Source: a phage
Assembly: GCA_018015315.1 (NCBI GenBank)
Contig: GCA_018015315.1_3629.1
DNA length: 64,000 nt
Reading direction: 5' to 3' (one strand)
This document shows positions 3,290 through 63,625 of the stretch, one piece after another; position 1 is the stretch's first letter, and every line of letters begins with the position of its first letter. The position numbers and the translations under genes were made by a program. A model generated the notes under the pieces. The model saw only the letters and a list, made by a program, of their open reading frames with translations, was not told the DNA's origin and searched no databases.

Positions 3290-3553
3290 ATGGCAACAGA
3301 GTTAAAATTTGCATCAAACCGTAAAACTAAGAAGTATCTGTCCTCAGTAGCTCCAGGCACTGTGGTGATGTTTGTTGATGAACTTGGGGATGTGAATACA
3401 GCACTTGTTGTAAAATCACATCCTGCAAACATATATGTTGGGGTATTTGACCTGTTCAGAAAGGTGTTTGTAGAACTACCTCACAGTTTGGTTGTTACAG
3501 AAATGGATGCCTGCATAGAAATTCTTGGCGAAGTTATGGTGGAGGAACAATAA
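3290..3553 (+). CDS. small hypothetical protein, paralog 1 of a tandem array of four
   Basis: 87 aa; GAGGAGG RBS upstream; shares size and motifs (GTVV..., V.E.D..I.ILGE) with the next three ORFs. Confidence 0.6.
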   Translation: MATELKFASNRKTKKYLSSVAPGTVVMFVDELGDVNTALVVKSHPANIYVGVFDLFRKVFVELPHSLVVTEMDACIEILGEVMVEEQ

Positions 3554-3819
3554 TGGCTACTAGCATTGTATTCAATTCTAAGGTGAAGAACAAAAAGCGT
3601 GCAGACAGTTTTCCGTGTGGGACCGTGGTAAGTTGCGACGGAGACGGCATTCAAAACATAGTTATGATTGTCAAAACAGGAGAACATTGTGTGTGGGGGT
3701 TCGATTTAGAAAATAATGAGTTGTACGATCTGCCGCCAAACATGAAAGTTACAGAGCTTGACACCAAAATTACCATCCTTGGAGAGGCAAGCTATTCAAA
3801 AGAAGGAGGAGAACAATGA
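3553..3819 (+). CDS. small hypothetical protein, paralog 2
   Basis: 88 aa; start overlaps the previous stop (ATAATGG); same motifs as paralog 1. Confidence 0.6.
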   Translation: MATSIVFNSKVKNKKRADSFPCGTVVSCDGDGIQNIVMIVKTGEHCVWGFDLENNELYDLPPNMKVTELDTKITILGEASYSKEGGEQ

Positions 3820-4079
3820 CCACAAAAATCACTATCGCAGAACCGAAAGCTAACACTCAACCTATCGAAAAGTTTAAGTGCGGTGAGGTGGTAACATTCA
3901 CACCAGATAATGAAGATGCTAAGATTTTCGCAATGGTCACAGCTGAGTGGATGTGTGACAACACCACACAGGTTCTGCGTTTTGACACCTATCTTACCGA
4001 CGAAATCAGGAACGACAAGATCGTGACTGGTGTGGATACTGAGATTGTTTTCTACAAGAGCTTTTTAGAGGGTTTCTGA
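3816..4079 (+). CDS. small hypothetical protein, paralog 3
   Basis: 87 aa; ATGA start/stop overlap with paralog 2; CGEVV motif in the same position. Confidence 0.55.
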   Translation: MTTKITIAEPKANTQPIEKFKCGEVVTFTPDNEDAKIFAMVTAEWMCDNTTQVLRFDTYLTDEIRNDKIVTGVDTEIVFYKSFLEGF

Positions 4080-4080
4080 T

Positions 4081-4314
4081 ATGGCAAAAATTCGTAAATT
4101 ATCCAGCAATCAGGTTGTGAAAGACTTTGAATCTGGAGAGATTCTGTATGTTCGTGATGCAGATGACGAATGTGAAGATCTTGTTATGTTGGTGGGGCAC
4201 GCTGAGGACGGATGCATCCAAGCTGTTTTTCTTGAAACAGCTATGGTGCACTGGATAGAGCTGGACCTGAAAGCACGAAAACCTAAAGCAGAAATCCTGA
4301 TTTACGAAGATTAA
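4081..4314 (+). CDS. small hypothetical protein, paralog 4 (more diverged)
   Basis: 77 aa; similar size and acidic character, weaker similarity to the other three. Confidence 0.5.
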   Translation: MAKIRKLSSNQVVKDFESGEILYVRDADDECEDLVMLVGHAEDGCIQAVFLETAMVHWIELDLKARKPKAEILIYED

Positions 4315-4330
4315 CAAAAAGGAGAGAGCC

Positions 4331-4780
4331 GTGTTGAGCAAACGTGAATGCGACAGCATTAGCCTGAATTCTTATAAGAAACAATGGTTTGGAGTGGAAG
4401 TTTGCCGACTGCGGCTAGGCTCCTACCTGAACTTCGTTTATTATGAAAGCGATAGTCGTATCGTTTCTTATGAAGTGTTCTACACTAAGAACACCTTCGA
4501 ACTGCGCCGTAAAGTGGATGGTGGGAGAACTACCCCCCAGAATAATTGGGAAACTATCCTACCTACAGATGTTATAGGAAGTCCACTGAATGTATCTGAA
4601 GATGAAAATCTTATGGTTCATGCTATGATGGGACTTGACAGCTTAGAGCTGGCGATCTATGATATGTCCATCGAAGCAGTTAAGCTGGACTACATCGAAA
4701 ACACTTTAGAGGAAGGTATCAAGAAGTTTCTCAGTGAGAAATTAAAAGACCACTTTCATAAGGAGCTATACCTGTTATGA
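4331..4780 (+). CDS. hypothetical protein
   Basis: 149-aa ORF, GTG start with AAGGAGAGAG RBS; same strand and tight spacing as neighbours. Confidence 0.5.
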   Translation: MLSKRECDSISLNSYKKQWFGVEVCRLRLGSYLNFVYYESDSRIVSYEVFYTKNTFELRRKVDGGRTTPQNNWETILPTDVIGSPLNVSEDENLMVHAMMGLDSLELAIYDMSIEAVKLDYIENTLEEGIKKFLSEKLKDHFHKELYLL

Positions 4781-7820: not shown

Positions 7821-10800
7821 TTAACGAGAGAAAGTTGCATAAGCTTCAAGATCATACTGCTGATCACCAGGAAGCATGGCACCTATGGAGCCAAACCCCA
7901 TGACCCTGCCTTCTACTGCCAACTGCAGTCTGAACCCTACCCATCCGGAACTTCTTGCAGCCTCGATGTTATCGCTATACCCGAAAGTAGCAAGCTCGTC
8001 AACTCCAGATCCGAACAGCAACTGGATCTGATTTCTCGGAAGCCCTATAATTTCAGGAATATATGCTCCGAAGTACACCATTTGCCCTACTTTAGGACCG
8101 CTGCCATACTCCATCGGTCTGCTTGCAGAGAAAGTCTTCATTCCTGAAGTCCCTGCCGGATTTGGGTATGCCCCGTTTGTTGCTCTGCCTATCCACATTC
8201 TCCACTGTGGTGTCATCTGTTTGACAGTGAAAGATGTTGAAGACGTCTTGCGGCCTGCATCATCCGTAACTACAAACGTTATGTTGACATTACCGGGCGC
8301 TTTAAATGTTACCAGTCCTGTGTTAGCATCAACAGTTGCTATGCCAGTATTACTACTTTCCCAAGTCTTTCTGATCCCTGTTACGTTGGAAGGGGTGATA
8401 GAGGGTTCCTGCATCTGCAGTTTACCGCCAACAATACCTATGCCATTGCCAGGGTTATACAACACCCCAACCTCATCTACAATATTCCCAGCCTTGAGGC
8501 TGTATTTTCTTGAGAAGTTGTAGGTTCCGTTATAAGTATGTGTCCCTGAGAATGTGACATCGGCCTTGCCGTGGGAGATGCAAACCAAAGCATACTTCCT
8601 GTCAGGCAATGTAGCCCCGGTCTCTGGGTGAGTTTTACCCACTTGGAACACGCCAGGATCGGTAGAGTCGTGGCTATCCCTGATAGAGCTTGGACCACCC
8701 ATTAACTGAGACAAGCAATCCCTTACCCACGTCCAGTTATTATCACTGGAGAAGTCAACAGTCAAATCAAACACAACCCACTCGTTAGGCTTCCAAACAG
8801 GTGTTGTAATAGACTTGCCTACGCCACCACCCTGAAGGGTAGATGACTGCTCAGTGATCAATGCTGCATAAGCCAAAGTCCCTAAACGCAAGGTCTGGCT
8901 TGCGGTTCTCACCACCTTAGAATCGGCATCTGTGAAGTTGTTGATAACCTGGAAGGTGCCATAAGTGTTTTTACAGGTGATTCTTGCATTCAGTGTGTCA
9001 ATCTTTCTCACATCTGCCATGGCAGTGTTAGACACAGAGAAGTCAGAAGCTTTGGCTGAGTTTGCTGCAACAACCGGAACAACGTTAAGAGTTGCGTTGA
9101 ACTGGCAAGCAGGAGTAACCAGCAGCCTGTTATCACCTATTTGCTTCCATGAAACACTTTGAACAGGTAGATTCCATTTGATACCTGAGAAAACTTTAGC
9201 AACCCTTGGTCCCAGAGCTCCAGTCCTGTTGTCTTTACAACACATAGACATGGTGATCGTTGACGGAGTGGCCTGACCAAACAATTGCTGTGCTTTTGCA
9301 GAAGACATGGTGTAGAAATTGTCCTTAACAAACTCATCAGCTGCTAACGATCCGTCAGATTTCCACCACTGCACCTGATACCCTGTCTTATCCCAGCCCC
9401 CAACCTGCTTCAAGTCTTCCCAAGAGATTTCCAGATCTCCCGTGGTAGGATTGATTGCAGCAGTCCCTGGTGTGCCGGATGACCACAATGGAATATCGAA
9501 CCACGCTGGTTTAACAGATTGCACTGCGTTAGGACCTATTGCAGCAGCAAGTTGTTGGCCCATCAATACGCGAGCATCTTTTACCAGACCCCACTCAATC
9601 ATGGATCCAGAGTAACCTTCTTTCTTGTAGGCCGAGGATCCGTTTAAGTGGATAAGTCTGCTTGTGCCGAAGTTATACGCTCCACCACCGTTGTCGTCTG
9701 CAAAGTTGTACACAATTCTATCCCTGGTGTCTTTCCACGCTCTACCACCTATTTCATAGTTGTGGTCATAGCAACGTTGCAGTGTTGTCCAGCAAATGAT
9801 AGCCATCCTTCTGCCATTGCTGAAGCCGAAGGCATTATCGTTAAGCTCTCTCCACAAATAGCAGTTGGTAGTCCACATGGCTCTGTGGATGTTAAACCAG
9901 TTGACAGATCTTGCAGCATTGTTGTAGTCGGTTCCCTCTAGAGTAGGCCACACTGCATTAACCAGCATGTCTTCTGTCCCCGCATCCATCAGGAATCCTC
10001 TTACCTTTTTACCCATTCCTACTCTGTCTTTAGCAATCCAGCTGCCAAACAGTCTCAGTTTGGGGCCAATAACAGTTTCCTCCGGATGCTCAAGAGAAAC
10101 ATATTTCAAGTGTACTGTAGGATCACCATAGGTGCCATCGCAGACACTTTTGTGCATGTTTTCACCAAGGTCCAGACGAATACCTGTAAGAGTTTTTGTG
10201 TTGTCTGTGAGTTTGTCTGTCAAGTCAAACTCATACCACCACCATCCAGCACCTAACAATACCTTCTTACAACGCTGTGCATCTGTATCAGATATTCTCT
10301 TATCCCCTGCAAAAGGCGAATCTGCAAATTGGTAGTGCAGAGCAATTTCAAACGGGTGTGTTGATGTTCCGTTTTCAGCAGGAACTTGCTTACCTATCAG
10401 GTCGCACTTAATGATCATCACGACACGTCTGTATCCATTGGCTACCGGAACGTCGAACGGATACTTCTCTCCGTTCATATTTGCATGGACAGACGAGAAG
10501 ACTATATACGGGTCAACAGCATTACCCAGGGTTTCAGGACCAGGGATCATTTTGTATTTCTTGACTTGCCCCATAATATAGTCGCTGCCATAGGTTGCAG
10601 CCTCGAAGCAAGATCCCCCGTTAGGTAGTTCCCCCGGACCCCAGAAAAATGCGCCATAACAGTTATAAAACCACTTGTTAGGGTCGTATTTGTTCTTGAA
10701 GGTCTGAACCTCGTTGGCCTGTTTTGTCAAGAAAACCTGCGTATCTGTGAAGATTGCAGGGTTTACTCTCGCCTGACGCGGAGGGTAACCTGTAGTCTGG

Positions 10801-13457
10801 TTAAACCACTGATTACAAGAGATATCTCTCATATAGTCATAATCGGAATATTTGTTTGCATCTTCGTTCCAACACAGGTTCAGGTTGGTGCCGCCCATGC
10901 ACACAATATATTCTGTGACATATTTATCACTTCTGGTTGGGATTCCTATGAACCATCTGTTAACAGGCTCGTCCCAAGCTGTCCGCTCATCTTTAACGCA
11001 GATAGCGATCCAGTCATGTGTTCCTGTTTTCTTGCACACATCGCGCTTCATACCATAATAAAACTCTTTAGTATTTGGCTCAGGTGCATTTATCAGGTAA
11101 CTCCACGCCTGATTTGCATAGGTTCCATTGGTGCGAGGATCATGGTCAAAGGCATACATGATGATCCTTTCTCCACCAAGATGTTCACCGAGGGTAACTT
11201 TGATGTTTACATCACCGTAACCGTTACGAACTATATCCATATTGTCAATAGAGATGCCTCTAGGGGTGTAGGCAATTTTCAGAGAACTATCTTCACTGGT
11301 ACCACCCAGAGTAATACCTATATTGTTTGTTGTTCCATCAACATATTTTACTGTAGCTTCCCAACGTATCCCGAAATACCCTGCGTTGTGGCTAACAACT
11401 TTCAGTGTGCGAGCACCTGGGTGAGGCTTACCAGGATCAGGCCATGGATCAGCATGCTCGTGCACTGTTAACGATGTTCCGTTCTGCTCGTTAACCTGCA
11501 GCATCTTCCCGCCTTTGCCGTTAGGGTTGAACTCCCACAAGGCTTGTGTTTTCACAAGATTGTCATAGATACTGCGTCTCTGGTCGTAGATCTCCTGGGT
11601 CACATCATACGTGGTAGATCCGGCATCTTGCCTGTGAAGCCTAACCATATATGCTGTATCGCTTTCTGGAGCAGGCTGAGAGCCGTTAAGCCCAAAGTAT
11701 ACAGTATCGTTTACATGGAACTGTTTCTTCCTGCCAACAGTGTGCCATTTGCCGTCTGACGGATATGCAGGAACTATAATGTTCCAGTTTAAGTTTCGTG
11801 TGGTGTGGGTTCTTCCAGCGCCATGTTTATCATGATAGGTGATCTTGACAGAATACAGACCGCGTCTGTTGATGTTACGGTTATGCTGGGTAACCACAAT
11901 CTCGTTAGCACCGCCATGGTTCCAGTTAGTAGAGAACTGATAGTTTGCATCTGTAACAACAGTACCTGCAGCGTTCACGAGCTCAATCTTGTCAATAATG
12001 AACGTAGCACCCTCCGGTTGAGGTTTCAACTTCATTTTGACAGTGTCGCCAATGTATATATTGCTAACACTGCTTACACCATTGACATCAAAGATGTCTT
12101 CGATACTCCAGCTATCTACCGGAACATTTTTATACCAATTCTCAGGAATCTCTGTGAACCCTTGGCTGTTAAGTCTGCCGCCGAACAGGTTATTAGATCC
12201 TGAAAAACTACCACGTGGTATTCCTGACCACCAAAGCTTTCCATTTACCACACAGAATGTGCCTAAGAAACCTTCCCTGTGGATCCCTTGAAAATAAACG
12301 CTTTCTGTCCAGCTTACTGGCTCTGTCTGTTCAACAAACTTAGCTGTTGCCAGCGCTCTGTAATGAATAAAATTGGCCCTAGGATTATTATTAGCAGATT
12401 GAGCACCAATATCGTTACACAGGTTTCTGGAGAAACCACGGTACTGTTTTGTACCATTATTGAAGAAAATTCCACTAGTCCCGTACCCGCGAGCCATAAT
12501 TACTTCATGGGTATAGGTGATGTTAAGGCTTCTCCACGTGTCGTCACCCCAAACATCCTGACCATAAAACACATTAACAAGTTGTTGGTCATCAGGTTTG
12601 TGCATCCTTTCTGTGGCTATAATTGCCCCGTTAGGACCACACATAAACCCTTTCCACTCCTCATCTGCAGGAATGCCTCTCAAATCGTTACGAGTAATCT
12701 GCACAGGAGGCCAAACAAGGTCGTTTCTATTGTTATTTCTCAGAAAGTCGTATCCAGCAATCCAGAAACCTCTAGGACCACCGAAAATAACAGAGTTGTC
12801 ATGCACCTCGCAGTTGATGCTTGGGTTTTTCCAAGGTCCTGTTTCAGGATTTTCCGATGTCTCACCAATCTTTACAGGGGTTGCATGCTGATTTTTATCT
12901 ACATGCAAAGATCCGTAGGTGTTGTTACCAGATCCATATAGGTTAAGTATGCCAGTGCCTTCTGCCTCTGCAATAACCCAGACAGTGTTGTTAATACCAC
13001 CCATCACCTCAATAAGGCGCTCTGGGTGGGTGTCAAGGTGCAACCCTTTAACAATCTGTTCCGGAAGAGGTGTCCACTCGTTTACGCAAACATCATTACC
13101 GCCTGCCGCAGTGGATCCGATAAGACCTGCAGTGCAGCCGATGTAGAAAAACTGGTTATCAAAAGTCCGGATCACAAACGCACGGTCTGCTCTCCACACA
13201 TGATCAACATTCCAGGCTGTTTCGCTTGGGTAGTTTATAGGGTTACGATCCCCAGTGCGACACTCCCCGAACTTGTTATAGCCCGTAATATTAAGCTGAC
13301 CATCATCAAAAAGTATAGCTAAGCTATTTACATAGGATACTGTGTTGCTTGTACCATCACTGTTGTCTATTGGGTATGACAGAACAGCAAGTTCCTTAAT
13401 TCCACCCCTCTTATCGAGGAAATGACGACCAAGTTTTAGCAAAGGGATTGGAAGCAT
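7821..13457 (-). CDS. giant tail fiber / virion-associated protein (1878 aa)
   Basis: 5.6 kb ORF at the distal end of the tail-fiber block; bacterial Ig-like segment near the C-terminus; GGAG RBS upstream. Confidence 0.65.
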   Translation of the reverse strand: MLPIPLLKLGRHFLDKRGGIKELAVLSYPIDNSDGTSNTVSYVNSLAILFDDGQLNITGYNKFGECRTGDRNPINYPSETAWNVDHVWRADRAFVIRTFDNQFFYIGCTAGLIGSTAAGGNDVCVNEWTPLPEQIVKGLHLDTHPERLIEVMGGINNTVWVIAEAEGTGILNLYGSGNNTYGSLHVDKNQHATPVKIGETSENPETGPWKNPSINCEVHDNSVIFGGPRGFWIAGYDFLRNNNRNDLVWPPVQITRNDLRGIPADEEWKGFMCGPNGAIIATERMHKPDDQQLVNVFYGQDVWGDDTWRSLNITYTHEVIMARGYGTSGIFFNNGTKQYRGFSRNLCNDIGAQSANNNPRANFIHYRALATAKFVEQTEPVSWTESVYFQGIHREGFLGTFCVVNGKLWWSGIPRGSFSGSNNLFGGRLNSQGFTEIPENWYKNVPVDSWSIEDIFDVNGVSSVSNIYIGDTVKMKLKPQPEGATFIIDKIELVNAAGTVVTDANYQFSTNWNHGGANEIVVTQHNRNINRRGLYSVKITYHDKHGAGRTHTTRNLNWNIIVPAYPSDGKWHTVGRKKQFHVNDTVYFGLNGSQPAPESDTAYMVRLHRQDAGSTTYDVTQEIYDQRRSIYDNLVKTQALWEFNPNGKGGKMLQVNEQNGTSLTVHEHADPWPDPGKPHPGARTLKVVSHNAGYFGIRWEATVKYVDGTTNNIGITLGGTSEDSSLKIAYTPRGISIDNMDIVRNGYGDVNIKVTLGEHLGGERIIMYAFDHDPRTNGTYANQAWSYLINAPEPNTKEFYYGMKRDVCKKTGTHDWIAICVKDERTAWDEPVNRWFIGIPTRSDKYVTEYIVCMGGTNLNLCWNEDANKYSDYDYMRDISCNQWFNQTTGYPPRQARVNPAIFTDTQVFLTKQANEVQTFKNKYDPNKWFYNCYGAFFWGPGELPNGGSCFEAATYGSDYIMGQVKKYKMIPGPETLGNAVDPYIVFSSVHANMNGEKYPFDVPVANGYRRVVMIIKCDLIGKQVPAENGTSTHPFEIALHYQFADSPFAGDKRISDTDAQRCKKVLLGAGWWWYEFDLTDKLTDNTKTLTGIRLDLGENMHKSVCDGTYGDPTVHLKYVSLEHPEETVIGPKLRLFGSWIAKDRVGMGKKVRGFLMDAGTEDMLVNAVWPTLEGTDYNNAARSVNWFNIHRAMWTTNCYLWRELNDNAFGFSNGRRMAIICWTTLQRCYDHNYEIGGRAWKDTRDRIVYNFADDNGGGAYNFGTSRLIHLNGSSAYKKEGYSGSMIEWGLVKDARVLMGQQLAAAIGPNAVQSVKPAWFDIPLWSSGTPGTAAINPTTGDLEISWEDLKQVGGWDKTGYQVQWWKSDGSLAADEFVKDNFYTMSSAKAQQLFGQATPSTITMSMCCKDNRTGALGPRVAKVFSGIKWNLPVQSVSWKQIGDNRLLVTPACQFNATLNVVPVVAANSAKASDFSVSNTAMADVRKIDTLNARITCKNTYGTFQVINNFTDADSKVVRTASQTLRLGTLAYAALITEQSSTLQGGGVGKSITTPVWKPNEWVVFDLTVDFSSDNNWTWVRDCLSQLMGGPSSIRDSHDSTDPGVFQVGKTHPETGATLPDRKYALVCISHGKADVTFSGTHTYNGTYNFSRKYSLKAGNIVDEVGVLYNPGNGIGIVGGKLQMQEPSITPSNVTGIRKTWESSNTGIATVDANTGLVTFKAPGNVNITFVVTDDAGRKTSSTSFTVKQMTPQWRMWIGRATNGAYPNPAGTSGMKTFSASRPMEYGSGPKVGQMVYFGAYIPEIIGLPRNQIQLLFGSGVDELATFGYSDNIEAARSSGWVGFRLQLAVEGRVMGFGSIGAMLPGDQQYDLEAYATFSR

Positions 13458-55960: not shown

Positions 55961-56037
55961 TGGTCTCCACGGAGTGATTCGAACACTCGACCTCCTGATC
56001 CCAAATCAGGCGCTCTACCAAGCTGAGCTACGCGGAG
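55961..56037 (-). tRNA. tRNA-Pro (anticodon UGG)
   Basis: Hand-folded cloverleaf: acceptor CTCCGCG/CGTGGAG, D-stem GCTC/GAGC, anticodon stem CCTGA/TCAGG, loop TTTGGGA, T-arm GAGTG-TTCGAAT-CACTC, CCA encoded. Confidence 0.75.
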
Positions 56038-56048
56038 TATTTACTATT

Positions 56049-56123
56049 TGGTGGCCCTGGGTGGAATTGAACCACCGTCTGGCGATTATGAGTCGCTTGC
56101 TTGAACCTTCCAGCTACAGGGCC
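56049..56123 (-). tRNA. tRNA-Met (anticodon CAU; could be Ile-lysidine type)
   Basis: Acceptor GGCCCTG/CAGGGCC, anticodon loop CTCATAA, T-arm GGTGG-TTCAATT-CCACC, CCA encoded; D-stem only 3 bp. Confidence 0.65.
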
Positions 56124-56124
56124 T

Positions 56125-56200
56125 TGGTGCTGATGGCAGGACTTGAACCTGCAACATATTGATTACAAATCAATTGCACTACCAATTGTGCTACATCAGC
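56125..56200 (-). tRNA. tRNA-Thr (anticodon UGU)
   Basis: Perfect cloverleaf: acceptor GCTGATG/CATCAGC, D-stem GCAC/GTGC, anticodon stem ATTGA/TCAAT, loop TTTGTAA, T-arm GCAGG-TTCAAGT-CCTGC, CCA. Confidence 0.8.
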
Positions 56201-56205
56201 AAAAA

Positions 56206-56304
56206 GGTGCTAGGTGATGGAATCGAACCATCTATGTATTCAACGACTACCTCGTCTATTTTCAGGATTAAAAATCCTCGCCCTTGCCAAAGGGCTTACC
56301 TAGC
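56206..56304 (-). tRNA. atypical tRNA-like gene (possible anticodon UUU, ~30-nt extra region)
   Basis: Perfect acceptor (GCTAGGT/ACCTAGC), D-arm (GCCC-TTTGGCAA-GGGC) and T-arm (GATGG-TTCGATT-CCATC), but 4-bp anticodon stem and an unusually long region before the T-arm. Confidence 0.4.
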
Positions 56305-56402
56305 TCAGTATGTTGACCATGTTGCTAGTCGGCGATGACGACTGTAACATTTGATAATCCGGTTCTGCTTCCGGCTTTCGCTTAATTACAAGGTCAACAA
56401 TG

Positions 56403-56493
56403 TGGCAGAGGATAATGGAATCGAACCATCATCGAGTCATCCTCAACGGGACGGTTTTCAAGACCGCTTGAGCACCATTGCTCCCTACCCTCT
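56403..56493 (-). tRNA. tRNA-Ser (anticodon UGA), long variable arm
   Basis: Anticodon arm GCGGT-CTTGAAA-ACCGT, variable-arm hairpin, T-arm GATGG-TTCGATT-CCATT, acceptor AGAGGGT/ATCCTCT with one G-U pair, CCA encoded; D-arm spacing unusual. Confidence 0.6.
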
Positions 56494-56610
56494 TTTATTA
56501 TAAACAATACTGATAATGACACTGATTTTCGAGCAGTTAGTGACTAGTATAAACGACGATAAATACCAATGCCATTATCTGTATGATTTATGCATCTAAA
56601 AATATAAATT

Positions 56611-56697
56611 TGGTGGGGAGTGGTGGAGTCGAACCACCCGAGTCGCAATGACAATAGATTTACAGTCTACACCGCTACCTCTACGGGATAACTCCCC
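56611..56697 (-). tRNA. tRNA-Tyr (anticodon GUA), long variable arm
   Basis: Acceptor GGGGAGT/ACTCCCC, anticodon arm GTAGA-CTGTAAA-TCTAT, T-arm GGTGG-TTCGACT-CCACC, CCA encoded. Confidence 0.7.
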
Positions 56698-56701
56698 AAT
56701 T

Positions 56702-56776
56702 TGGCACCCCGTACTGGACTCGAACCAGTGTCAACGGCTTAGAAGGCCGCTGCTTTATCCACTAAGCTAACAGGGC
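56702..56776 (-). tRNA. tRNA-Arg (anticodon UCU)
   Basis: D-stem GCTT/AAGC, anticodon arm GCGGC-CTTCTAA-GCCGT, T-arm ACTGG-TTCGAGT-CCAGT, CCA encoded. Confidence 0.75.
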
Positions 56777-59710: not shown

Positions 59711-60265
59711 TTACTCCCCGCTGTCAATAGCAAGACTCATTGCAATAAGGTATGCCTCTTCTAATGGTAAGAGTCTCCCCCACACATCCCAACCGACATC
59801 AAACTGCCTGCCAAACAACTGCTGTGTGGTTCCGTGAGCATGACCGAACAGTTGGACTGATCCGTGAGGCTTTCTGTTCCACTTTGCAAACTGGTAATGG
59901 CTCATACAGATCAAATTCTTGTTGTGGCGAAGCTCGTAATAATCTACAACCTCATGACCGAACTCTTTCATAATTCTGACAGTCGTCCTTGTGTCATGGT
60001 TACCACGAACAAGAATAATATGTCCGTTCAACATATTTAGAACATCTGGGAGCAATTTGTTGATATTCTTATCATTAGTGCACGCAATATCTCCCAAGTG
60101 AAACACAGTGTCTGCAGGCGACACAACAGAGTTCCACTCGGCGATGATTCCCGCATTCATACTGTCAAGATTGTGATCATACTGAGATCTGTGTTTTTGA
60201 CATGAATCAAACTCCATGACCCGCTGGTGGAGAAAGTGTGTGTCGCTTGTTACAAAGTATTTCAT
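59711..60265 (-). CDS. calcineurin-like metallophosphoesterase
   Basis: Start at the internal ATG (MKYFVTSDTHF); motifs D-x-H (SDTH), GD (HLGDIA), GNHD (RGNHDT), GHxH (GHAHG). Confidence 0.7.
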   Translation of the reverse strand: MKYFVTSDTHFLHQRVMEFDSCQKHRSQYDHNLDSMNAGIIAEWNSVVSPADTVFHLGDIACTNDKNINKLLPDVLNMLNGHIILVRGNHDTRTTVRIMKEFGHEVVDYYELRHNKNLICMSHYQFAKWNRKPHGSVQLFGHAHGTTQQLFGRQFDVGWDVWGRLLPLEEAYLIAMSLAIDSGE

Positions 60266-60272
60266 ACATTCC

Positions 60273-60683
60273 TCATTTAAGTTTAATGCAGTTTTTAAGC
60301 TGGCGTTCCATACGATCCACAACCTTGTCTGGAACATCATGAATGCTTTTATTACCGTGGCGGTTTTCAACCACGATCACGGTATAACTATACCCATGAC
60401 TGATTGCCATGTCAACATATTCCTGCACATGTTTTTCTTTTGTAAACGTATTACTTACCACGATACGGTCGTATCCCATACGCATCATATCTTCTACGTT
60501 ATCTTTGCACCATTTTGCTGCGAGTGTTACTTTACTTGCATCCCAGTTGTAATTGCCGTCATCGTCATACCAGAACATATCGTTCTCAAAATGTGGATAC
60601 AGACCTTCTAAAGATAGCGCATTTGCCAGTGTTGATTTGCCAGACCCTGGCAGACCACGCACGATATATAGCATTTTAGACAT
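60273..60683 (-). CDS. P-loop polynucleotide kinase-like protein
   Basis: Start at ATG (MSKMLYIV) with GGAGG RBS; Walker A GLPGSGKST at residues 10-18; ~136 aa, the size of a standalone 5'-kinase domain. Confidence 0.65.
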   Translation of the reverse strand: MSKMLYIVRGLPGSGKSTLANALSLEGLYPHFENDMFWYDDDGNYNWDASKVTLAAKWCKDNVEDMMRMGYDRIVVSNTFTKEKHVQEYVDMAISHGYSYTVIVVENRHGNKSIHDVPDKVVDRMERQLKNCIKLK

Positions 60684-60711
60684 AGCAATCCTCCGTTTTA
60701 ATTTTAATGAT

Positions 60712-60740
60712 AGTATACCTAACTGTTTTGTTAATTTCAA
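60712..60740 (-). promoter_or_regulatory. sigma70-like promoter for the kinase/phosphoesterase pair
   Basis: Minus strand: TTGAAA (60735-60740), 17-bp spacer, TATACT (60712-60717). Confidence 0.55.
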
Positions 60741-60783
60741 GTGTTGACACTAGGTTATTTGTGTGGCAGGATAGACTGACAAA

Positions 60784-61719
60784 ATGACAAATGAGGAACG
60801 TATGATGAAGTATTTTAATGCAGATGACCTAGTAGACAAAGGTCTTGTAACCAGTCGGTATTATCCAGATCTTGGATTAAAGATCTATAAATATGCCAGA
60901 AAAGTATTCTACAACAATCTGTGGCATTTGTCTCCGCGTTTACTGGAGTGCCGAGGTATTGTTGTTGGCAATGAGGGGAATGTTGTGGCATGGCCTTTCA
61001 CAAAAGTATTCAACTTAGGAGAAAACTCCACCAACCTACCGGACAGTAAACTTGTTACTGCGGTAGAGAAAAAGAACGGATTCCTCGGTGTGGTATCATC
61101 TCATAAAGGTGAACTATTGTTCTCAACAACCGGGTCTCTTGATTCTCCATATTGTAACCTTGCAAAGGAAACCATCCAAGAGCAATGTGGTAATTTAGAT
61201 CTTATCAAGAAGGTTATGGGCAATGAAAACATGACATTCATGTTTGAAATTTGTCACCCTTCAGATCCGCATATTGTTCAAGAAGACCATGGCGCATATT
61301 TGATAGGTTGCAGATATAATGATTCTGGAATAATGCTACCAGAAGCAGCTTTAGATGGGATTGCCAAATACCTTGGTGCAAAACGTCCTCACACTGTGCG
61401 TGAAATCCCGTTCAGCTATGCAAAAGAATTAGCTGCAGAAACAAGGGGCGAAGGGTATATGATCCGTAAGCCTTACTACCCTTATGACCTGCAGCTGAAG
61501 ATCAAGTCTCCATACTATTTGGCACGGAAGGCCGTAATGAGAGGTAAAGCATGGAAGATTTGGGATGACGATATTTTTAAACGTGTTGACGAGGAGTTTT
61601 ACGGTATGGTAAAATTTATTCGTAGCAACTATACAGAAGATGTGTGGAATTGCTTATTAGAGCAGGAGCGTCGCGAGATACTGGACTGCTATTTCCACAA
61701 CGAGGACTACATGAAATGA
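60784..61719 (+). CDS. RNA ligase (Rnl-like nucleotidyltransferase)
   Basis: 311 aa; candidate motif I lysine in VEKKNGFLG (KxxG); divergent from the kinase/phosphoesterase operon. Confidence 0.6.
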   Translation: MTNEERMMKYFNADDLVDKGLVTSRYYPDLGLKIYKYARKVFYNNLWHLSPRLLECRGIVVGNEGNVVAWPFTKVFNLGENSTNLPDSKLVTAVEKKNGFLGVVSSHKGELLFSTTGSLDSPYCNLAKETIQEQCGNLDLIKKVMGNENMTFMFEICHPSDPHIVQEDHGAYLIGCRYNDSGIMLPEAALDGIAKYLGAKRPHTVREIPFSYAKELAAETRGEGYMIRKPYYPYDLQLKIKSPYYLARKAVMRGKAWKIWDDDIFKRVDEEFYGMVKFIRSNYTEDVWNCLLEQERREILDCYFHNEDYMK

Positions 61720-62066
61720 AGAAGTGGATTGTGTGGCTTGATGATTTTAGAGATCCGTCAGATTATGGACTCCCAGACGCTCTGTGGCTAAAGAATTCTT
61801 CTGAATTTATGGATTTTCTTAATGATAAGAGAAAGCTCTACAGACGCGTATCTGAATGGTATTTTGACAATGATCTAGGTGAAGTTCTTGAAGGGTACGA
61901 CTGCTTCTCTGCGCTAGAGGAGAAACTTGTATTCGGAAAGCCACCACTTATTGACAACGTGATTATTTTCGTGCATACTTCTAATCCATCGGCAGCTCGT
62001 AAATTTATGCTTGCTGCTGACTCATTCAAGAAGTTTGGAATAGAGATCAAACAAAACATCTACTGA
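61716..62066 (+). CDS. hypothetical protein coupled to the RNA ligase
   Basis: ATG overlaps the ligase stop (ATGA); 117 aa. Confidence 0.5.
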   Translation: MKKWIVWLDDFRDPSDYGLPDALWLKNSSEFMDFLNDKRKLYRRVSEWYFDNDLGEVLEGYDCFSALEEKLVFGKPPLIDNVIIFVHTSNPSAARKFMLAADSFKKFGIEIKQNIY

Positions 62067-62074
62067 GGACACTT

Positions 62075-62836
62075 ATGCGACGACTGATTATTATCTCCGG
62101 TGCTGGTTTGAGCGCTGAATCTGGTATTCCCACTTTCCGATCTGGTAGCACTGCAATGTGGGAGAATTTCAGCATCGATGAGGTGTGCAACATCCACACC
62201 TTTGCCAAGAACTACTATAAGGTGCATGACTTTTACAATGCACGTCGTGTAGCTCTGGGCAGTGTTGATCCTAACCTTGCACATCTTCGGATCGCTGAGT
62301 GGTATTCCCGCTGGTCTGGTCGTGTGATCAACCTTACCACCAATGTAGATGATTTGCTGGAGCGTGCTGGTGTAAAACATGAAGATATTTTACATGTCCA
62401 CGGGTATTTGCCTGAAATCACCTACGAAGATGCTGAAGGTAATGATGTAATTAAAAATATCGGATACACGGAGGTAGATACAGGCAAGTATACCTGGGTT
62501 AAGCCCAATGTAGTGTTCTTCGGTGAGGTTGCTCCTAAGTATACAGACATGTATGACCTGTTGACATCTCTCACAAGCAATGATATGGTGATCCTAGTAG
62601 GTTGTTCTAACACAGTTATTAATTTTAACTGGGAATTGTTTCCTGCTACTTGTAAAGGCACAAAACTGCTGATTGTAAACAAGTATGACTCGCAGAGTGC
62701 AGATGGAAGTGGCATTTCACGTAGCGACCTTTATCAATATGAGGATCGCGGGATCCCTGTATGGTTTAACGGTGCTGTTGACGCTTTCTCTGATAAAGCA
62801 TTTATTGAAACTGTAGAAAACTTTATGGAACTTTAA
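62075..62836 (+). CDS. Sir2-family (sirtuin-like) NAD-dependent enzyme lacking the Zn-ribbon
   Basis: Sirtuin motifs GAGLSAESGIPTFRS, FYNARR, TTNVDD, HVHG, VVFFGE, ILVGCS; the CxxC...CxxC zinc module is absent. Confidence 0.75.
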   Translation: MRRLIIISGAGLSAESGIPTFRSGSTAMWENFSIDEVCNIHTFAKNYYKVHDFYNARRVALGSVDPNLAHLRIAEWYSRWSGRVINLTTNVDDLLERAGVKHEDILHVHGYLPEITYEDAEGNDVIKNIGYTEVDTGKYTWVKPNVVFFGEVAPKYTDMYDLLTSLTSNDMVILVGCSNTVINFNWELFPATCKGTKLLIVNKYDSQSADGSGISRSDLYQYEDRGIPVWFNGAVDAFSDKAFIETVENFMEL

Positions 62837-62849
62837 AAGGAGACCTTTA

Positions 62850-63563
62850 ATGCTGAATACTAAACTGATCGACAACCTGGAAAAACTGTCTCAGCCTGAA
62901 AACTACCTTTGGTCTGCCAACTGGGTGGAAAACTGGAACCGTGTGGCAGCTAAAGTGAAAAAATCATACACACCATTCGAATTACAGCTTAGCTTCATTG
63001 AGGAAGAGTTCAATGAGGTTTTGGAAGAGCTGGAGAAAGGTGATGGTGGAGATCACCTGCTAAAAGAGGCCTGCGATCTTCACGTTGTCACAAGTTATGC
63101 CGCTTATCTTGTTAATGATAATCACGAAAAGTGGTCAAACCTGTTTGATAATCCACGAGGTCTTAAGTTCAAGATCGGTGAGTTCTATGATACACTGATC
63201 GCTGCGAAAAACACATCCAAGCAAAGAGCGTCAGCTTACCGCTTAGCGGAGTTGTCAACAGCTTTGCTGTTCCAGCTTCGCGGCGATGTGTGTGGGATGA
63301 TGCGGAAGGTTCTCAAATCTAATGACAGTAAGTTTGCACGGATCAACCATCTACGATATTCTCACAGTGCCAGTGCAGATATGTCTACTGAATTGCTCAT
63401 AGAGTTAGAGATTGAAGATCTTGAGCGTCGTTTTGGTGGTCGCTACGAAGGTTTCGTTGCTAAAGAGGAGTTCTACAACGGTAATAAAGTTATTATATTC
63501 CTTGACAGTAAAGGTAAGATTATGAAGCCTTCGAGCTTCAAGGATGTAACAGAGTATATTTAA
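62850..63563 (+). CDS. MazG-like nucleoside triphosphate pyrophosphohydrolase
   Basis: 237 aa; EEEFNEVLEELEKGD...KEACD acidic metal-binding motif typical of all-alpha NTP pyrophosphatases. Confidence 0.55.
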   Translation: MLNTKLIDNLEKLSQPENYLWSANWVENWNRVAAKVKKSYTPFELQLSFIEEEFNEVLEELEKGDGGDHLLKEACDLHVVTSYAAYLVNDNHEKWSNLFDNPRGLKFKIGEFYDTLIAAKNTSKQRASAYRLAELSTALLFQLRGDVCGMMRKVLKSNDSKFARINHLRYSHSASADMSTELLIELEIEDLERRFGGRYEGFVAKEEFYNGNKVIIFLDSKGKIMKPSSFKDVTEYI

Positions 63564-63625
63564 CAACATAGCCGGGATTACCCGGCTTTACTTATTATGG
63601 AAAGTATGCAGTGAGGTAGTTAGTT

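Follow-up and report, generated by a model that had tools for sequence, protein, structure and literature searches.

The enzymes Pnkp and Rnl1 of phage T4 repair tRNA and in this way counter the anticodon nuclease PrrC. In the tRNA splicing of fungi and plants Trl1, a ligase joined to a kinase and a 2H-type cyclic phosphodiesterase (CPDase), acts together with Tpt1, a 2'-phosphotransferase that depends on nicotinamide adenine dinucleotide (NAD), and with Poa1. A phage gene neighbourhood for which a Tpt1/KptA-like reaction was proposed, the removal of an RNA 2'-phosphate by a sirtuin using NAD, was described by Iyer, Burroughs, Anantharaman and Aravind (Viruses 2022;14:1977; PMC9503650, section 3.7.3) with Escherichia phage V5 and Proteus phage Mydo as prototypes. 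The present computational analysis concerns a cluster of six genes in a stretch of 64,000 nucleotides (nt) of phage DNA (GenBank assembly GCA_018015315.1, contig GCA_018015315.1_3629.1), referred to below as the window. The cluster encodes a polynucleotide kinase-like protein, a metallophosphoesterase, an RNA ligase, a protein with a cREC (cyclic-phosphate-processing receiver-like) domain, a sirtuin (Sir2) and a MazG-like protein.

Judged by its gene families, the cluster is a member of the type-2 sirtuin-centred RNA-repair neighbourhood and is already known, not new. The first-pass annotation of this DNA had found no described system to which the combination could be assigned; it had in fact been described by Iyer et al. 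in 2022 (PMC9503650) with phage V5 as prototype, and the main hypothesis of that annotation, an NAD-dependent removal of phosphate, is therefore the published one. With the neighbourhood already described and rV5 as its prototype, the value of the cluster lies in the reminder of a standing published hypothesis and not in a discovery. The reading preferred here, at a probability of about 0.55, is that the cluster serves RNA repair and includes a co-transcribed accessory dependent on NAD, irrespective of the specific chemistry of the sirtuin. RNA repair is well supported, and the role of the sirtuin is one that we infer.

The cluster and its gene products

A region of 4.25 kb matched 122 phage records with 90-99% nucleotide identity, among them Escherichia phage MiataMamis (99.4%), the BASEL phage EmilHeitz (98.6%) and phage rV5 (V5, NC_011041; 97.3%). 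On account of these matches the window is a segment of a Vequintavirus genome, i.e. of an rV5-like E. coli phage. As the cluster is kept at this level in 122 records, it is not a chance pattern of open reading frames (ORFs), and all six ORFs that had been claimed were present, each with a significant family match (Table 1). The gene positions given in the first-pass annotation held apart from small corrections; the phosphoesterase gene (59711-60265, minus strand) falls outside the span of 60273-63563 that had been claimed for the set. Along the window, structural genes on the minus strand are followed first by a tRNA array and next by small early genes; the cluster comes after these, where transcription turns rightward. 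Near the tRNA array the cluster forms two divergent units, with the kinase and phosphoesterase genes on the minus strand and the ligase, cREC, sirtuin and MazG-like genes on the plus strand. The other five genes all lie within 2.4 kb of the sirtuin gene.

The kinase carries a P-loop, a catalytic Asp downstream of it (D35) and a lid Arg (R108), and its nearest solved relatives are Pnk enzymes. The top matches of its profile in the PDB were the kinase domain of C. thermocellum Pnkp (4GP7, 2e-7), Pnkp1 (4XRP) and T4 Pnk (1LTQ, 6e-6). G13, G15, K16 and S17 of the P-loop were invariant, as were E33, D35 and R108. By these sequence features the protein belongs to the polynucleotide 5'-kinase clade of T4 Pnk and bacterial Pnkp. 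An analogy of the separate kinase, phosphoesterase and ligase with the fused bacterial enzyme had been drawn earlier and was borne out: CthPnkp heads the matches of the kinase profile, and PHROG 8238, a kinase...ligase profile of 737 positions, matches both the window kinase and the window ligase.

The best solved relative of the phosphoesterase was Aquifex aq_1665 (1XM7, 2e-10). Among 16 homologues D8, H10, G58-D59, G88-N89-H90-D91, H123, H142 and H144 were invariant, which correspond to the DxH, GD, GNHD, H and HxH motifs of the metal site. The protein is a candidate for the healing of 2',3'-cyclic or 3'-phosphate ends, or else for the processing of ADP-ribose (ADPR) phosphates. Its true start is the ATG at 60265 and not the TTG at 60370; the GAGGAA upstream overlaps the kinase stop codon, and the gene begins 7 nt past this stop. 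The annotation of MiataMamis lengthens the phosphoesterase gene (59711-60370) to an overlap of 68 nt with the kinase gene and starts the ligase gene at 60784. The annotation of EmilHeitz uses the starts supported by ribosome-binding sites, 60265 and 60802, which are favoured by the sequence and by the homologue alignments.

The ligase proved by both Pfam and fold evidence to be an RNA ligase. It scored 55.6 bits with PF09511 (cut-off 28.3). The AlphaFold2 model had a predicted local distance difference test (pLDDT) value of 92, with residues 1-7 disordered, and the top matches of a Foldseek search with it were RNA ligases, namely Rnl3 (8UCH), T4 Rnl1 (9DO4/2C5U) and the fungal Trl1 ligase domain Trl1-LIG (6N0T/8RBJ). 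RNA ligases gave E values of 4e-12 to 1e-8 (the top ones to 1e-10) and template modelling (TM) scores of about 0.6, DNA ligases E values of 2e-5 to 1e-2 and TM scores of at most 0.4. The reading of the 311-aa (amino acids, aa) ORF as a DNA ligase was ruled out by the same evidence, and relatives carry a separate ATP-dependent DNA ligase three genes downstream. Invariant in 31 homologues were K96-x-N98-G99 with the motif I lysine, E223-G224 of motif IV and K239-I-K241 of motif V. Sequence searches of the PDB, with the single sequence and with a profile, gave no match, and the protein was placed there only by the fold search. It is about 19% identical to T4 Rnl1, scores 38 bits against a cut-off of 242 for the T4 RnlA equivalog (NCBIfam TIGR02308), and is placed in a subfamily of its own, which has proteins of about 300 aa and numbers 1682 homologues. 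Its start is most likely at 60802, where GAGGAA is followed by ATGATG and where the homologues begin.

The product of the next gene had been listed as an unknown protein of 117 aa. It begins at 61716, comprises 116 aa and contains a cREC domain (PF20274, 52.3 bits against a cut-off of 27), which was defined in 2021 in a jumbo-phage paper from the group of Iyer et al. (PMC7824862). The protein is a predicted cyclic-phosphate phosphodiesterase. Its invariant residues, counted from the Met at 61716, are D9-D10, D51-N-D53 and H87..N90-P91, and they are kept even in a homologue from Demerecviridae with 30% identity; no solved structure was detected by a sequence search of the PDB. The gene overlaps the ligase stop codon by 4 nt (ATGA) and, to judge by this junction, is translationally coupled to the ligase gene. 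In the loci examined cREC had RNA ligase or tRNA genes as neighbours and no histidine kinase.

The sirtuin was closest to E. coli CobB (1S5P, 3e-21) and SIRT5 in the PDB by sequence, and its AlphaFold2 model (pLDDT 89) matched CobB with a TM score of 0.75. In an alignment of 35 clade members, which are 46-93% identical to the window protein, GAG..S.G..FR (G9-A10-G11, S16, G17, F21, R22), N90, D92, H109-G110 and FGE were invariant, and so was the class-III pair Tyr54/Arg57. The catalytic residues Asn90, Asp92 and His109 are thus present. The earlier designation as a Zn-less Sir2 was correct: each of the 35 members has no or one cysteine between the catalytic His109 and Lys143, where the Cys4 zinc ribbon of the small domain was looked for and the cysteines of CobB align to Cys-free sequence. 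The model has a three-stranded sheet at the expected site of the zinc module. The clade also departs invariably from canonical sirtuins in TTNVD for TQNID (Gln to Thr) and GCSN.VINF for GTS..V.PA. The best 120 homologues were all from phages. None of the PADLOC defence models matched the sirtuin, and a defence-type SIR2 or a known anti-defence protein was rejected on this ground.

These features bear on a less likely alternative, about as probable as the RNA 2'-phosphotransferase discussed below, in which the sirtuin is an ordinary CobB-like, NAD-dependent lysine deacylase (deacetylase or desuccinylase) that acts on host or phage proteins in the course of takeover and is merely co-located and co-transcribed with an otherwise complete repair set. 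The relationship to CobB and SIRT5 in sequence and fold would be expected of such an enzyme, as would the retention of all catalytic and NAD-binding motifs and of the Tyr/Arg pair, which defines desuccinylases. It is precisely in the pocket, however, that the clade departs from canonical sirtuins, by the loss of Zn-Cys4 and by TTNVD and GCSN.VINF, and in the window the sirtuin is tightly coupled with the ligase and cREC in one transcript.

The last gene product had been called MazG-like. This was supported by PHROG 671 (6e-22) and by the invariant E52, E53, E56 and D76 of an EExxE...D motif; S157-N-D159 and G222-K-I-x-K-P were also invariant. The Pfam score for PRA-PH was below threshold (13.7 bits, cut-off 21.3), and a profile comparison with the PDB gave HisE (1YVW) with E=0.05 over the EExxE...D helix pair.

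Table 1. Features of the cluster and the adjacent tRNA array, with positions in the window
Feature	Position	Strand	Evidence or remark
Phage tRNA array (Pro, Met/Ile, Thr, atypical Lys-UUU, Ser, Tyr, Arg)	55961-56776	minus	ARAGORN and Rfam; 3 kb from the cluster
Odd tRNA of 97 nt, anticodon loop UUUUUAA = Lys-UUU	56208-56304	minus	RF00005, 37.5 bits
Calcineurin-type metallophosphoesterase, 184 aa	59711-60265	minus	PF12850 1e-6, PF00149 3e-6 (above cut-off); phrog_547 7e-51
P-loop polynucleotide 5'-kinase-like protein, 136 aa	60273-60683	minus	PF13671 AAA_33 1e-10; phrog_2071 3e-58; phrog_505 'polynucleotide kinase' 5e-10
Intergenic region between the divergent units	60684-60801		read from the sequence
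Sigma-70-like promoter TTGAAA-17-TATACT	60740-60712	minus	29 nt upstream of the kinase start
ATP-dependent RNA ligase, Rnl1/Trl1 family, 305 aa	60802-61719 (ORF opens at 60784)	plus	PF09511 RNA_lig_T4_1 9e-15; phrog_562 9e-66
cREC-domain protein, 116 aa	61716-62066	plus	PF20274 9e-14; phrog_1479 4e-33
Zinc-less class-III sirtuin (Sir2), 253 aa	62075-62836	plus	PF02146 7e-28; phrog_2162 1.5e-108
MazG-like protein of the all-alpha nucleoside triphosphate pyrophosphohydrolase superfamily with C-terminal extension, 237 aa	62850-63563	plus	phrog_671 6e-22; ribosome-binding site AAGGAG
GC-rich hairpin AGCCGGGATTACCCGGCT	63570-63587	plus	directly 3' of the MazG-like stop; terminator-like on both strands

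For the plus-strand operon no convincing consensus sigma-70 promoter was found. Its genes follow each other closely, and behind the overlap of the ligase and cREC genes there is a gap of 8 nt before the sirtuin gene with the motif GAGGA and one of 13 nt before the MazG-like gene with AAGGAG, both resembling ribosome-binding sites. The hairpin behind the MazG-like gene is the probable end of the four-gene transcript; it counts as a consensus match only, because its T-tract is weak. An Rfam scan of 55.5-64 kb gave tRNAs only and no regulatory RNA in the cluster.

The tRNAs of the array are likely clients of the repair system, judging by gene position. A tRNA array beside the repair cluster was also found in Phapecoctavirus ukendt. 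In Pectobacterium phage DU_PP_V (L083, MF979564), a T5-related member of the Demerecviridae, a cREC homologue (3992-4336) lies inside an array of 15 tRNA genes; it is 30% identical to the window protein and keeps the catalytic Asp residues, the sirtuin gene is 23 kb away, and no Rnl1-type ligase was detected nearby. The sirtuin of DU_PP_V is nearest (60%) to those of the Stephanstirmvirinae and not to those of T5 phages, which suggests horizontal exchange.

One tRNA in the window array is abnormal for a tRNA-Lys, as it has an insertion of about 26 nt in the variable region, resembling the long arm of class II, and an anticodon stem of only 4 bp. ARAGORN labelled it 'tRNA-???'; it is annotated as tRNA-Lys in EmilHeitz and unannotated in MiataMamis. 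PrrC and PARIS classically attack tRNA-Lys(UUU), and this deviant copy, at a distance of 4 kb from the repair cluster, may therefore stand in for it as a nuclease-resistant tRNA. An intron requiring a ligase was considered and rejected, as the extra 26 nt lie in the variable region and not in the anticodon loop.

Occurrence and neighbourhoods in other phages

Distribution was counted over 50,697 phage records, and gene neighbourhoods were compared with iterated hidden Markov models of the six window proteins in 76 IMG/VR loci and the reference loci (81 sirtuin loci). The sirtuin clade was present in about 1,000 records, from rV5-like, T5-like (57% identity), Mydo-like/Klebsiella 145-kb, Stephanstirmvirinae, Vibrio T4-like and jumbo phages. 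The ligase subfamily of the window was found in 816 records and cREC in 356. For enterobacterial phages the ligase and cREC counts were 200 and 216 (Escherichia), 41 and 39 (Klebsiella) and 14 and 15 (Salmonella), all within Sir2-positive lineages. In these phages cREC follows the ligase nearly one-to-one, and the genome was sirtuin-positive in every case examined.

Within 10 kb of the sirtuin gene, the ligase, kinase and MazG-like genes were found in only 13-15 of the 81 loci and cREC in 10; the phosphoesterase was found in 18, including six without the ligase. All loci with the ligase set beside the sirtuin belonged to rV5-like phages or their relatives of about 145 kb. The Mydo-like/145-kb phages have the genes on one strand in the order phosphoesterase, ligase, cREC, kinase and Sir2, with a DNA ligase gene before MazG, and the proteins are 45-58% identical; this rearranged order argues for more than frozen synteny. 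In Phapecoctavirus the order is cREC, phosphoesterase, ligase, kinase, DNA ligase and MazG, these genes adjoin the tRNA array, and Sir2 lies 33 kb off in the same genome. The genes are thus co-inherited in several phage genera.

It is very improbable that the six genes have no joint function and are early or middle 'nucleotide and RNA' genes, independent of each other, which descent has kept adjacent in one phage supergroup. The translational coupling and the single terminator for four genes in the window speak against this, as do the recurrence of kinase, phosphoesterase and ligase in unrelated phages, the fusion represented by PHROG 8238 and the nearly equal counts of cREC and ligase in enterobacterial phages. 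What would fit it is that all six genes were seen adjacent in no phages but the rV5-like ones and the Mydo-like ones related to them, which make up 13-15 of the 81 sirtuin loci, that Phapecoctavirus has lost neither part with Sir2 33 kb away, and that relatives have unrelated genes (DNA ligase, small ORFs) lying in between.

The kinase, phosphoesterase and ligase form a robust and widespread heal-and-seal core. Aeromonas phage PAc has these three without sirtuin or cREC. Phage T5 is without this ligase, and its Sir2 gene lies three genes from that of an HAD_SAK_2 'Swiss-army-knife RNA repair' phosphatase (4e-20), which confirms the third configuration of Iyer et al. 2022 (PMC9503650). The arrangement in T5 and that in DU_PP_V, with Sir2 and a cREC gene in the tRNA array, tie the Sir2 clade independently to enzymes of RNA ends. 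Pfam scans of the sirtuin neighbours in jumbo-phage loci, Phapecoctavirus and Justusliebigvirus yielded little.

A phosphoesterase of the phrog_547 type was located 0.7-6.6 kb from the sirtuin in six loci from IMG/VR and Logan (L052, L053, L058, L064, L081 and L093), in which neither ligase nor kinase nor cREC occurred within 8-10 kb. The arrangement of these loci hints at a tie between sirtuin and phosphoesterase that is independent of RNA ligation. In L093, from an uncultured lineage, the phosphoesterase gene lies 2.3 kb downstream of the sirtuin gene.

The presence of the phosphoesterase beside the sirtuin without any ligase in six loci would also agree with an unlikely explanation in which sirtuin, cREC, MazG-like protein and phosphoesterase form a module for NAD+ and ADP-ribose metabolites, directed against host NAD-based immunity or toxic products (ADPR-1''-P, ADPR cyclic phosphate or cyclic ADPR-type signals), the ligase and kinase being separate. 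The Mydo-like phages have a NARP1-type pair (Prs-like Adps and Nampt-like Namat) divergently adjoining the cluster; a regulator gene lies beside this pair, and a weak homologue of it is found at the flank of the rV5 cluster. Pseudomonas phage PAK_P1 has a NARP1-type pair immediately behind its ligase and kinase genes (L084, 6326-9164), and in PAc a nicotinamide mononucleotide adenylyltransferase gene lies 4 kb away (L085, 1-902). ADPR-PP, an intermediate of NARP1, is reported to break down to ADPR cyclic phosphate (preprint 10.1101/2024.02.11.579819), a predicted substrate of cREC, and an ADPR-1P phosphatase is a known addition of phages to NARP1 (10.64898/2026.01.28.702374). Yet the sirtuin retains its NAD-consuming site and would worsen NAD depletion, not counter it. 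The 64-kb window of this rV5-like phage contains no NARP genes, the ATGA overlap ties cREC to the ligase frame, cREC lies inside a tRNA array in DU_PP_V, and the proven ADPR-1P phosphatase is a Macro domain, which is none of the families present here. No PADLOC or anti-defence family matched. An action against NAD-depleting defence, which the first-pass annotation had offered as its other suggestion, found no direct support; the proven counter-measures (NARP1/NARP2, Adpp) are also different enzymes.

Three phage groups that are unrelated to each other, those of Iguana, PAK_P1 and PAc, have genes for the reconstitution of NAD immediately beside the RNA ligase cluster. In Klebsiella phage Iguana (L003/L088, OR472445, 69.9-72.5 kb) the NARP1 pair lies by the regulator gene (E=9e-6), at the place where rV5 has the kinase and phosphoesterase genes. 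No mention of a link between NAD-reconstitution genes and an RNA ligase cluster was found in the NARP1 preprint (10.1101/2024.02.11.579819).

Some further neighbours of the sirtuin were recorded. In a 278-kb jumbo contig (L069) a nucleoside 2-deoxyribosyltransferase-like gene (10713-11195; PF15891 Nuc_deoxyri_tr2, 1e-33) stands directly downstream of the sirtuin gene; the PF15891 family is one of the TIR/DrHyd/SLOG group of NAD- and nucleotide-processing domains. In Escherichia phage JohannJBalmer (Bas62, L089) the end of a gene for a 184-aa 'putative aminoacyl-tRNA synthetase' (3456-4010) overlaps the start of a phi92-type sirtuin gene. Its match to the PheRS B1 domain was only sub-threshold (E=0.022). 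A second such 'synthetase' gene and a Metallophos phosphatase gene lie 2-4 kb upstream of this sirtuin (Metallophos 2.3 kb). The synthetase-annotated gene is a possible further link to tRNA, going by its annotation and position. About 18-25 unannotated 'Campylobacter phage' records (MG0656xx, host C. jejuni) were 97-100% identical over this region to E. coli rV5-like and phi92-like phages; their host labels look wrong, as would be the case for contaminating coliphages.

Proposed course of repair and the role of the sirtuin

By analogy, the kinase, phosphoesterase and ligase, with or without cREC, very probably constitute an RNA repair system. It would repair tRNAs or other RNAs that were cut by host anticodon nucleases or ribotoxins and carry 2',3'-cyclic phosphate and 5'-OH ends; tRNAs are the most plausible substrates because of the recurrent nearness to tRNA arrays. 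The kinase, which belongs to the Pnk family, would phosphorylate the 5'-OH, and cREC or the metallophosphoesterase, or both, would open or remove the cyclic phosphate. The break would then be sealed by the ligase, whose family and fold are those of Rnl1/Trl1. If cREC leaves a 2'-phosphate, as the CPDase of yeast Trl1 does, the sirtuin would remove it and convert NAD+ to nicotinamide and ADP-ribose 1'',2''-cyclic phosphate. It may be speculated that the MazG-like pyrophosphatase and the phosphoesterase (NARP1 in relatives) finally clear or recycle the ADP-ribose cyclic phosphate.

That the zinc-less sirtuin is an RNA 2'-phosphotransferase, and as such a non-homologous analogue of Tpt1/KptA, can be put forward only tentatively. 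In the reactions of both sirtuins and Tpt1 an oxygen nucleophile attacks C1'' of NAD+, and the 2''-OH of the ribose then attacks. A Tpt1-like role would be chemically reasonable; the clade keeps the catalytic His109 and also Tyr54/Arg57, a pair that serves in SIRT5 and CobB to bind an anionic group. The proteins of the cluster gave no match to the Tpt1/KptA family (PF01885), and the candidate, having a sirtuin fold, would be a functional analogue only.

Several points weigh against an NAD-dependent RNA repair cluster. The sirtuin is not obligatorily bound to the ligase: several hundred records of T5-like phages have the sirtuin without this ligase, and about 177 Pseudomonas phage records (Pakpunavirus) have ligase, kinase and phosphoesterase without sirtuin or cREC. 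In four uncultured (metagenomic) lineages and several jumbo phages neither ligase nor cREC was found within 8-10 kb of the sirtuin; its neighbours there were replication and nucleotide-metabolism genes, with no kinase within the same distance. As the lineages with adjacency are all related myoviruses, the synteny may partly reflect common descent. The fold of the ligase is as near to T4 Rnl1 as to Trl1, of which only Trl1 requires a 2'-phosphate, and because of these equal fold scores the two specificities are not separable by fold. The metallophosphoesterase could remove the phosphate fully, which would make a 2'-phosphotransferase unnecessary, and E. coli already encodes KptA. The sirtuin clade is acidic (median pI, isoelectric point, 5.1), and apart from the departures described above the protein is a well-preserved CobB-type enzyme. 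No experimental test of a phage sirtuin in RNA repair was found in the literature to mid-2026; the searches gave only the comparative-genomics papers of 2021 and 2022.

T5-like, Vibrio T4-like and jumbo phages and several uncultured ones carry the sirtuin amid replication and nucleotide genes and are without the ligase; this, and the ligase set of Pakpunavirus without a sirtuin, would also suit a mere lysine deacylase. It would suit such an enzyme less that an enzyme for RNA ends or for ADP-ribose phosphates (cREC, HAD_SAK_2 or a phosphoesterase) is repeatedly found near the sirtuin in unrelated phage families.

If the sirtuin does act on RNA 2'-phosphate, sirtuins would gain a new class of substrate, and for the first time a nucleic-acid phosphate would be the demonstrated target of a sirtuin. 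The phage would in that case possess a eukaryote-style, yeast-like tRNA repair of healing, sealing and NAD-consuming dephosphorylation as a counter-defence against host anticodon nucleases, and RNA-targeting immunity would be tied to the arms race centred on NAD. The prediction is directly testable, as rV5 and the BASEL Vequintavirinae, E. coli phages that carry the system, are easy to handle.

Comparison with known systems

With T4 Pnkp and Rnl1 the cluster shares a Pnk-type 5'-kinase and an Rnl1-family ligase near phage tRNA genes, and the presumed purpose is the same. The 3'-healing enzyme of the window is a separate dinuclear metallophosphoesterase, whereas T4 Pnk has a fused HAD domain with the DxDxT motif, and the C-terminal helical region of the ligase is shorter than that of T4 Rnl1. 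The cREC, sirtuin and MazG proteins are without T4 counterparts. C. thermocellum Pnkp has the same three catalytic families, and its phosphoesterase is of the same calcineurin/lambda-phosphatase superfamily as that of the window, although the nearest solved relative of the latter is Aquifex aq_1665. In contrast to bacterial Pnkp-Hen1, the window has three separate genes on two strands, and no Hen1 2'-O-methyltransferase or other methyltransferase family was found among the seven window proteins scanned.

The Trl1/Tpt1 pathway is the template for the proposal. The window has a ligase of the same Pfam family and a P-loop kinase, and beside them a predicted cyclic phosphodiesterase, an enzyme that uses NAD and candidates for the disposal of ADP-ribose phosphates. 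It differs in that the CPDase candidate is the Rec-like cREC and not a 2H protein, in that the NAD enzyme has a sirtuin fold and not that of an ADP-ribosyltransferase, and in the lack of a Macro domain such as Poa1.

Like CobB, SIRT5 and Sir2Af1, the window sirtuin keeps GAGxS, FR, the N and D of TQNID, HG, FGE and the anion-binding pair Tyr-x-x-Arg; unlike them, its clade is without the Zn cysteines and has an invariant Thr for the Gln of TQNID and GCSN.VINF for GTS..V.PA. The SIR2 NADases of defence systems (ThsA, DSR1/2, SIR2-HerA, SPARSA) are also without a zinc ribbon and use NAD+, but the window sirtuin groups with the deacylase-type class III and not with SIR2_2 (PF13289 only 0.097).

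The agreement with the type-2 neighbourhood of Iyer et al. is close. It extends to the sirtuin of a distinct clade, the T4-like tRNA ligase, cREC, the nucleotide kinase, the MazG-superfamily pyrophosphatase and the calcineurin-like phosphoesterase, and also to the lack of a Macro-domain match among the proteins neighbouring the window sirtuin. The phage is of the same genus, with 97% nucleotide identity to rV5, and nothing substantive differs. The present analysis adds the loss of Zn throughout the clade, the change from TQNID to TTNVD, the kept class-III Tyr/Arg pair, the operon junctions, the limits of the linkage to certain lineages and the adjacency of NARP1 in relatives.

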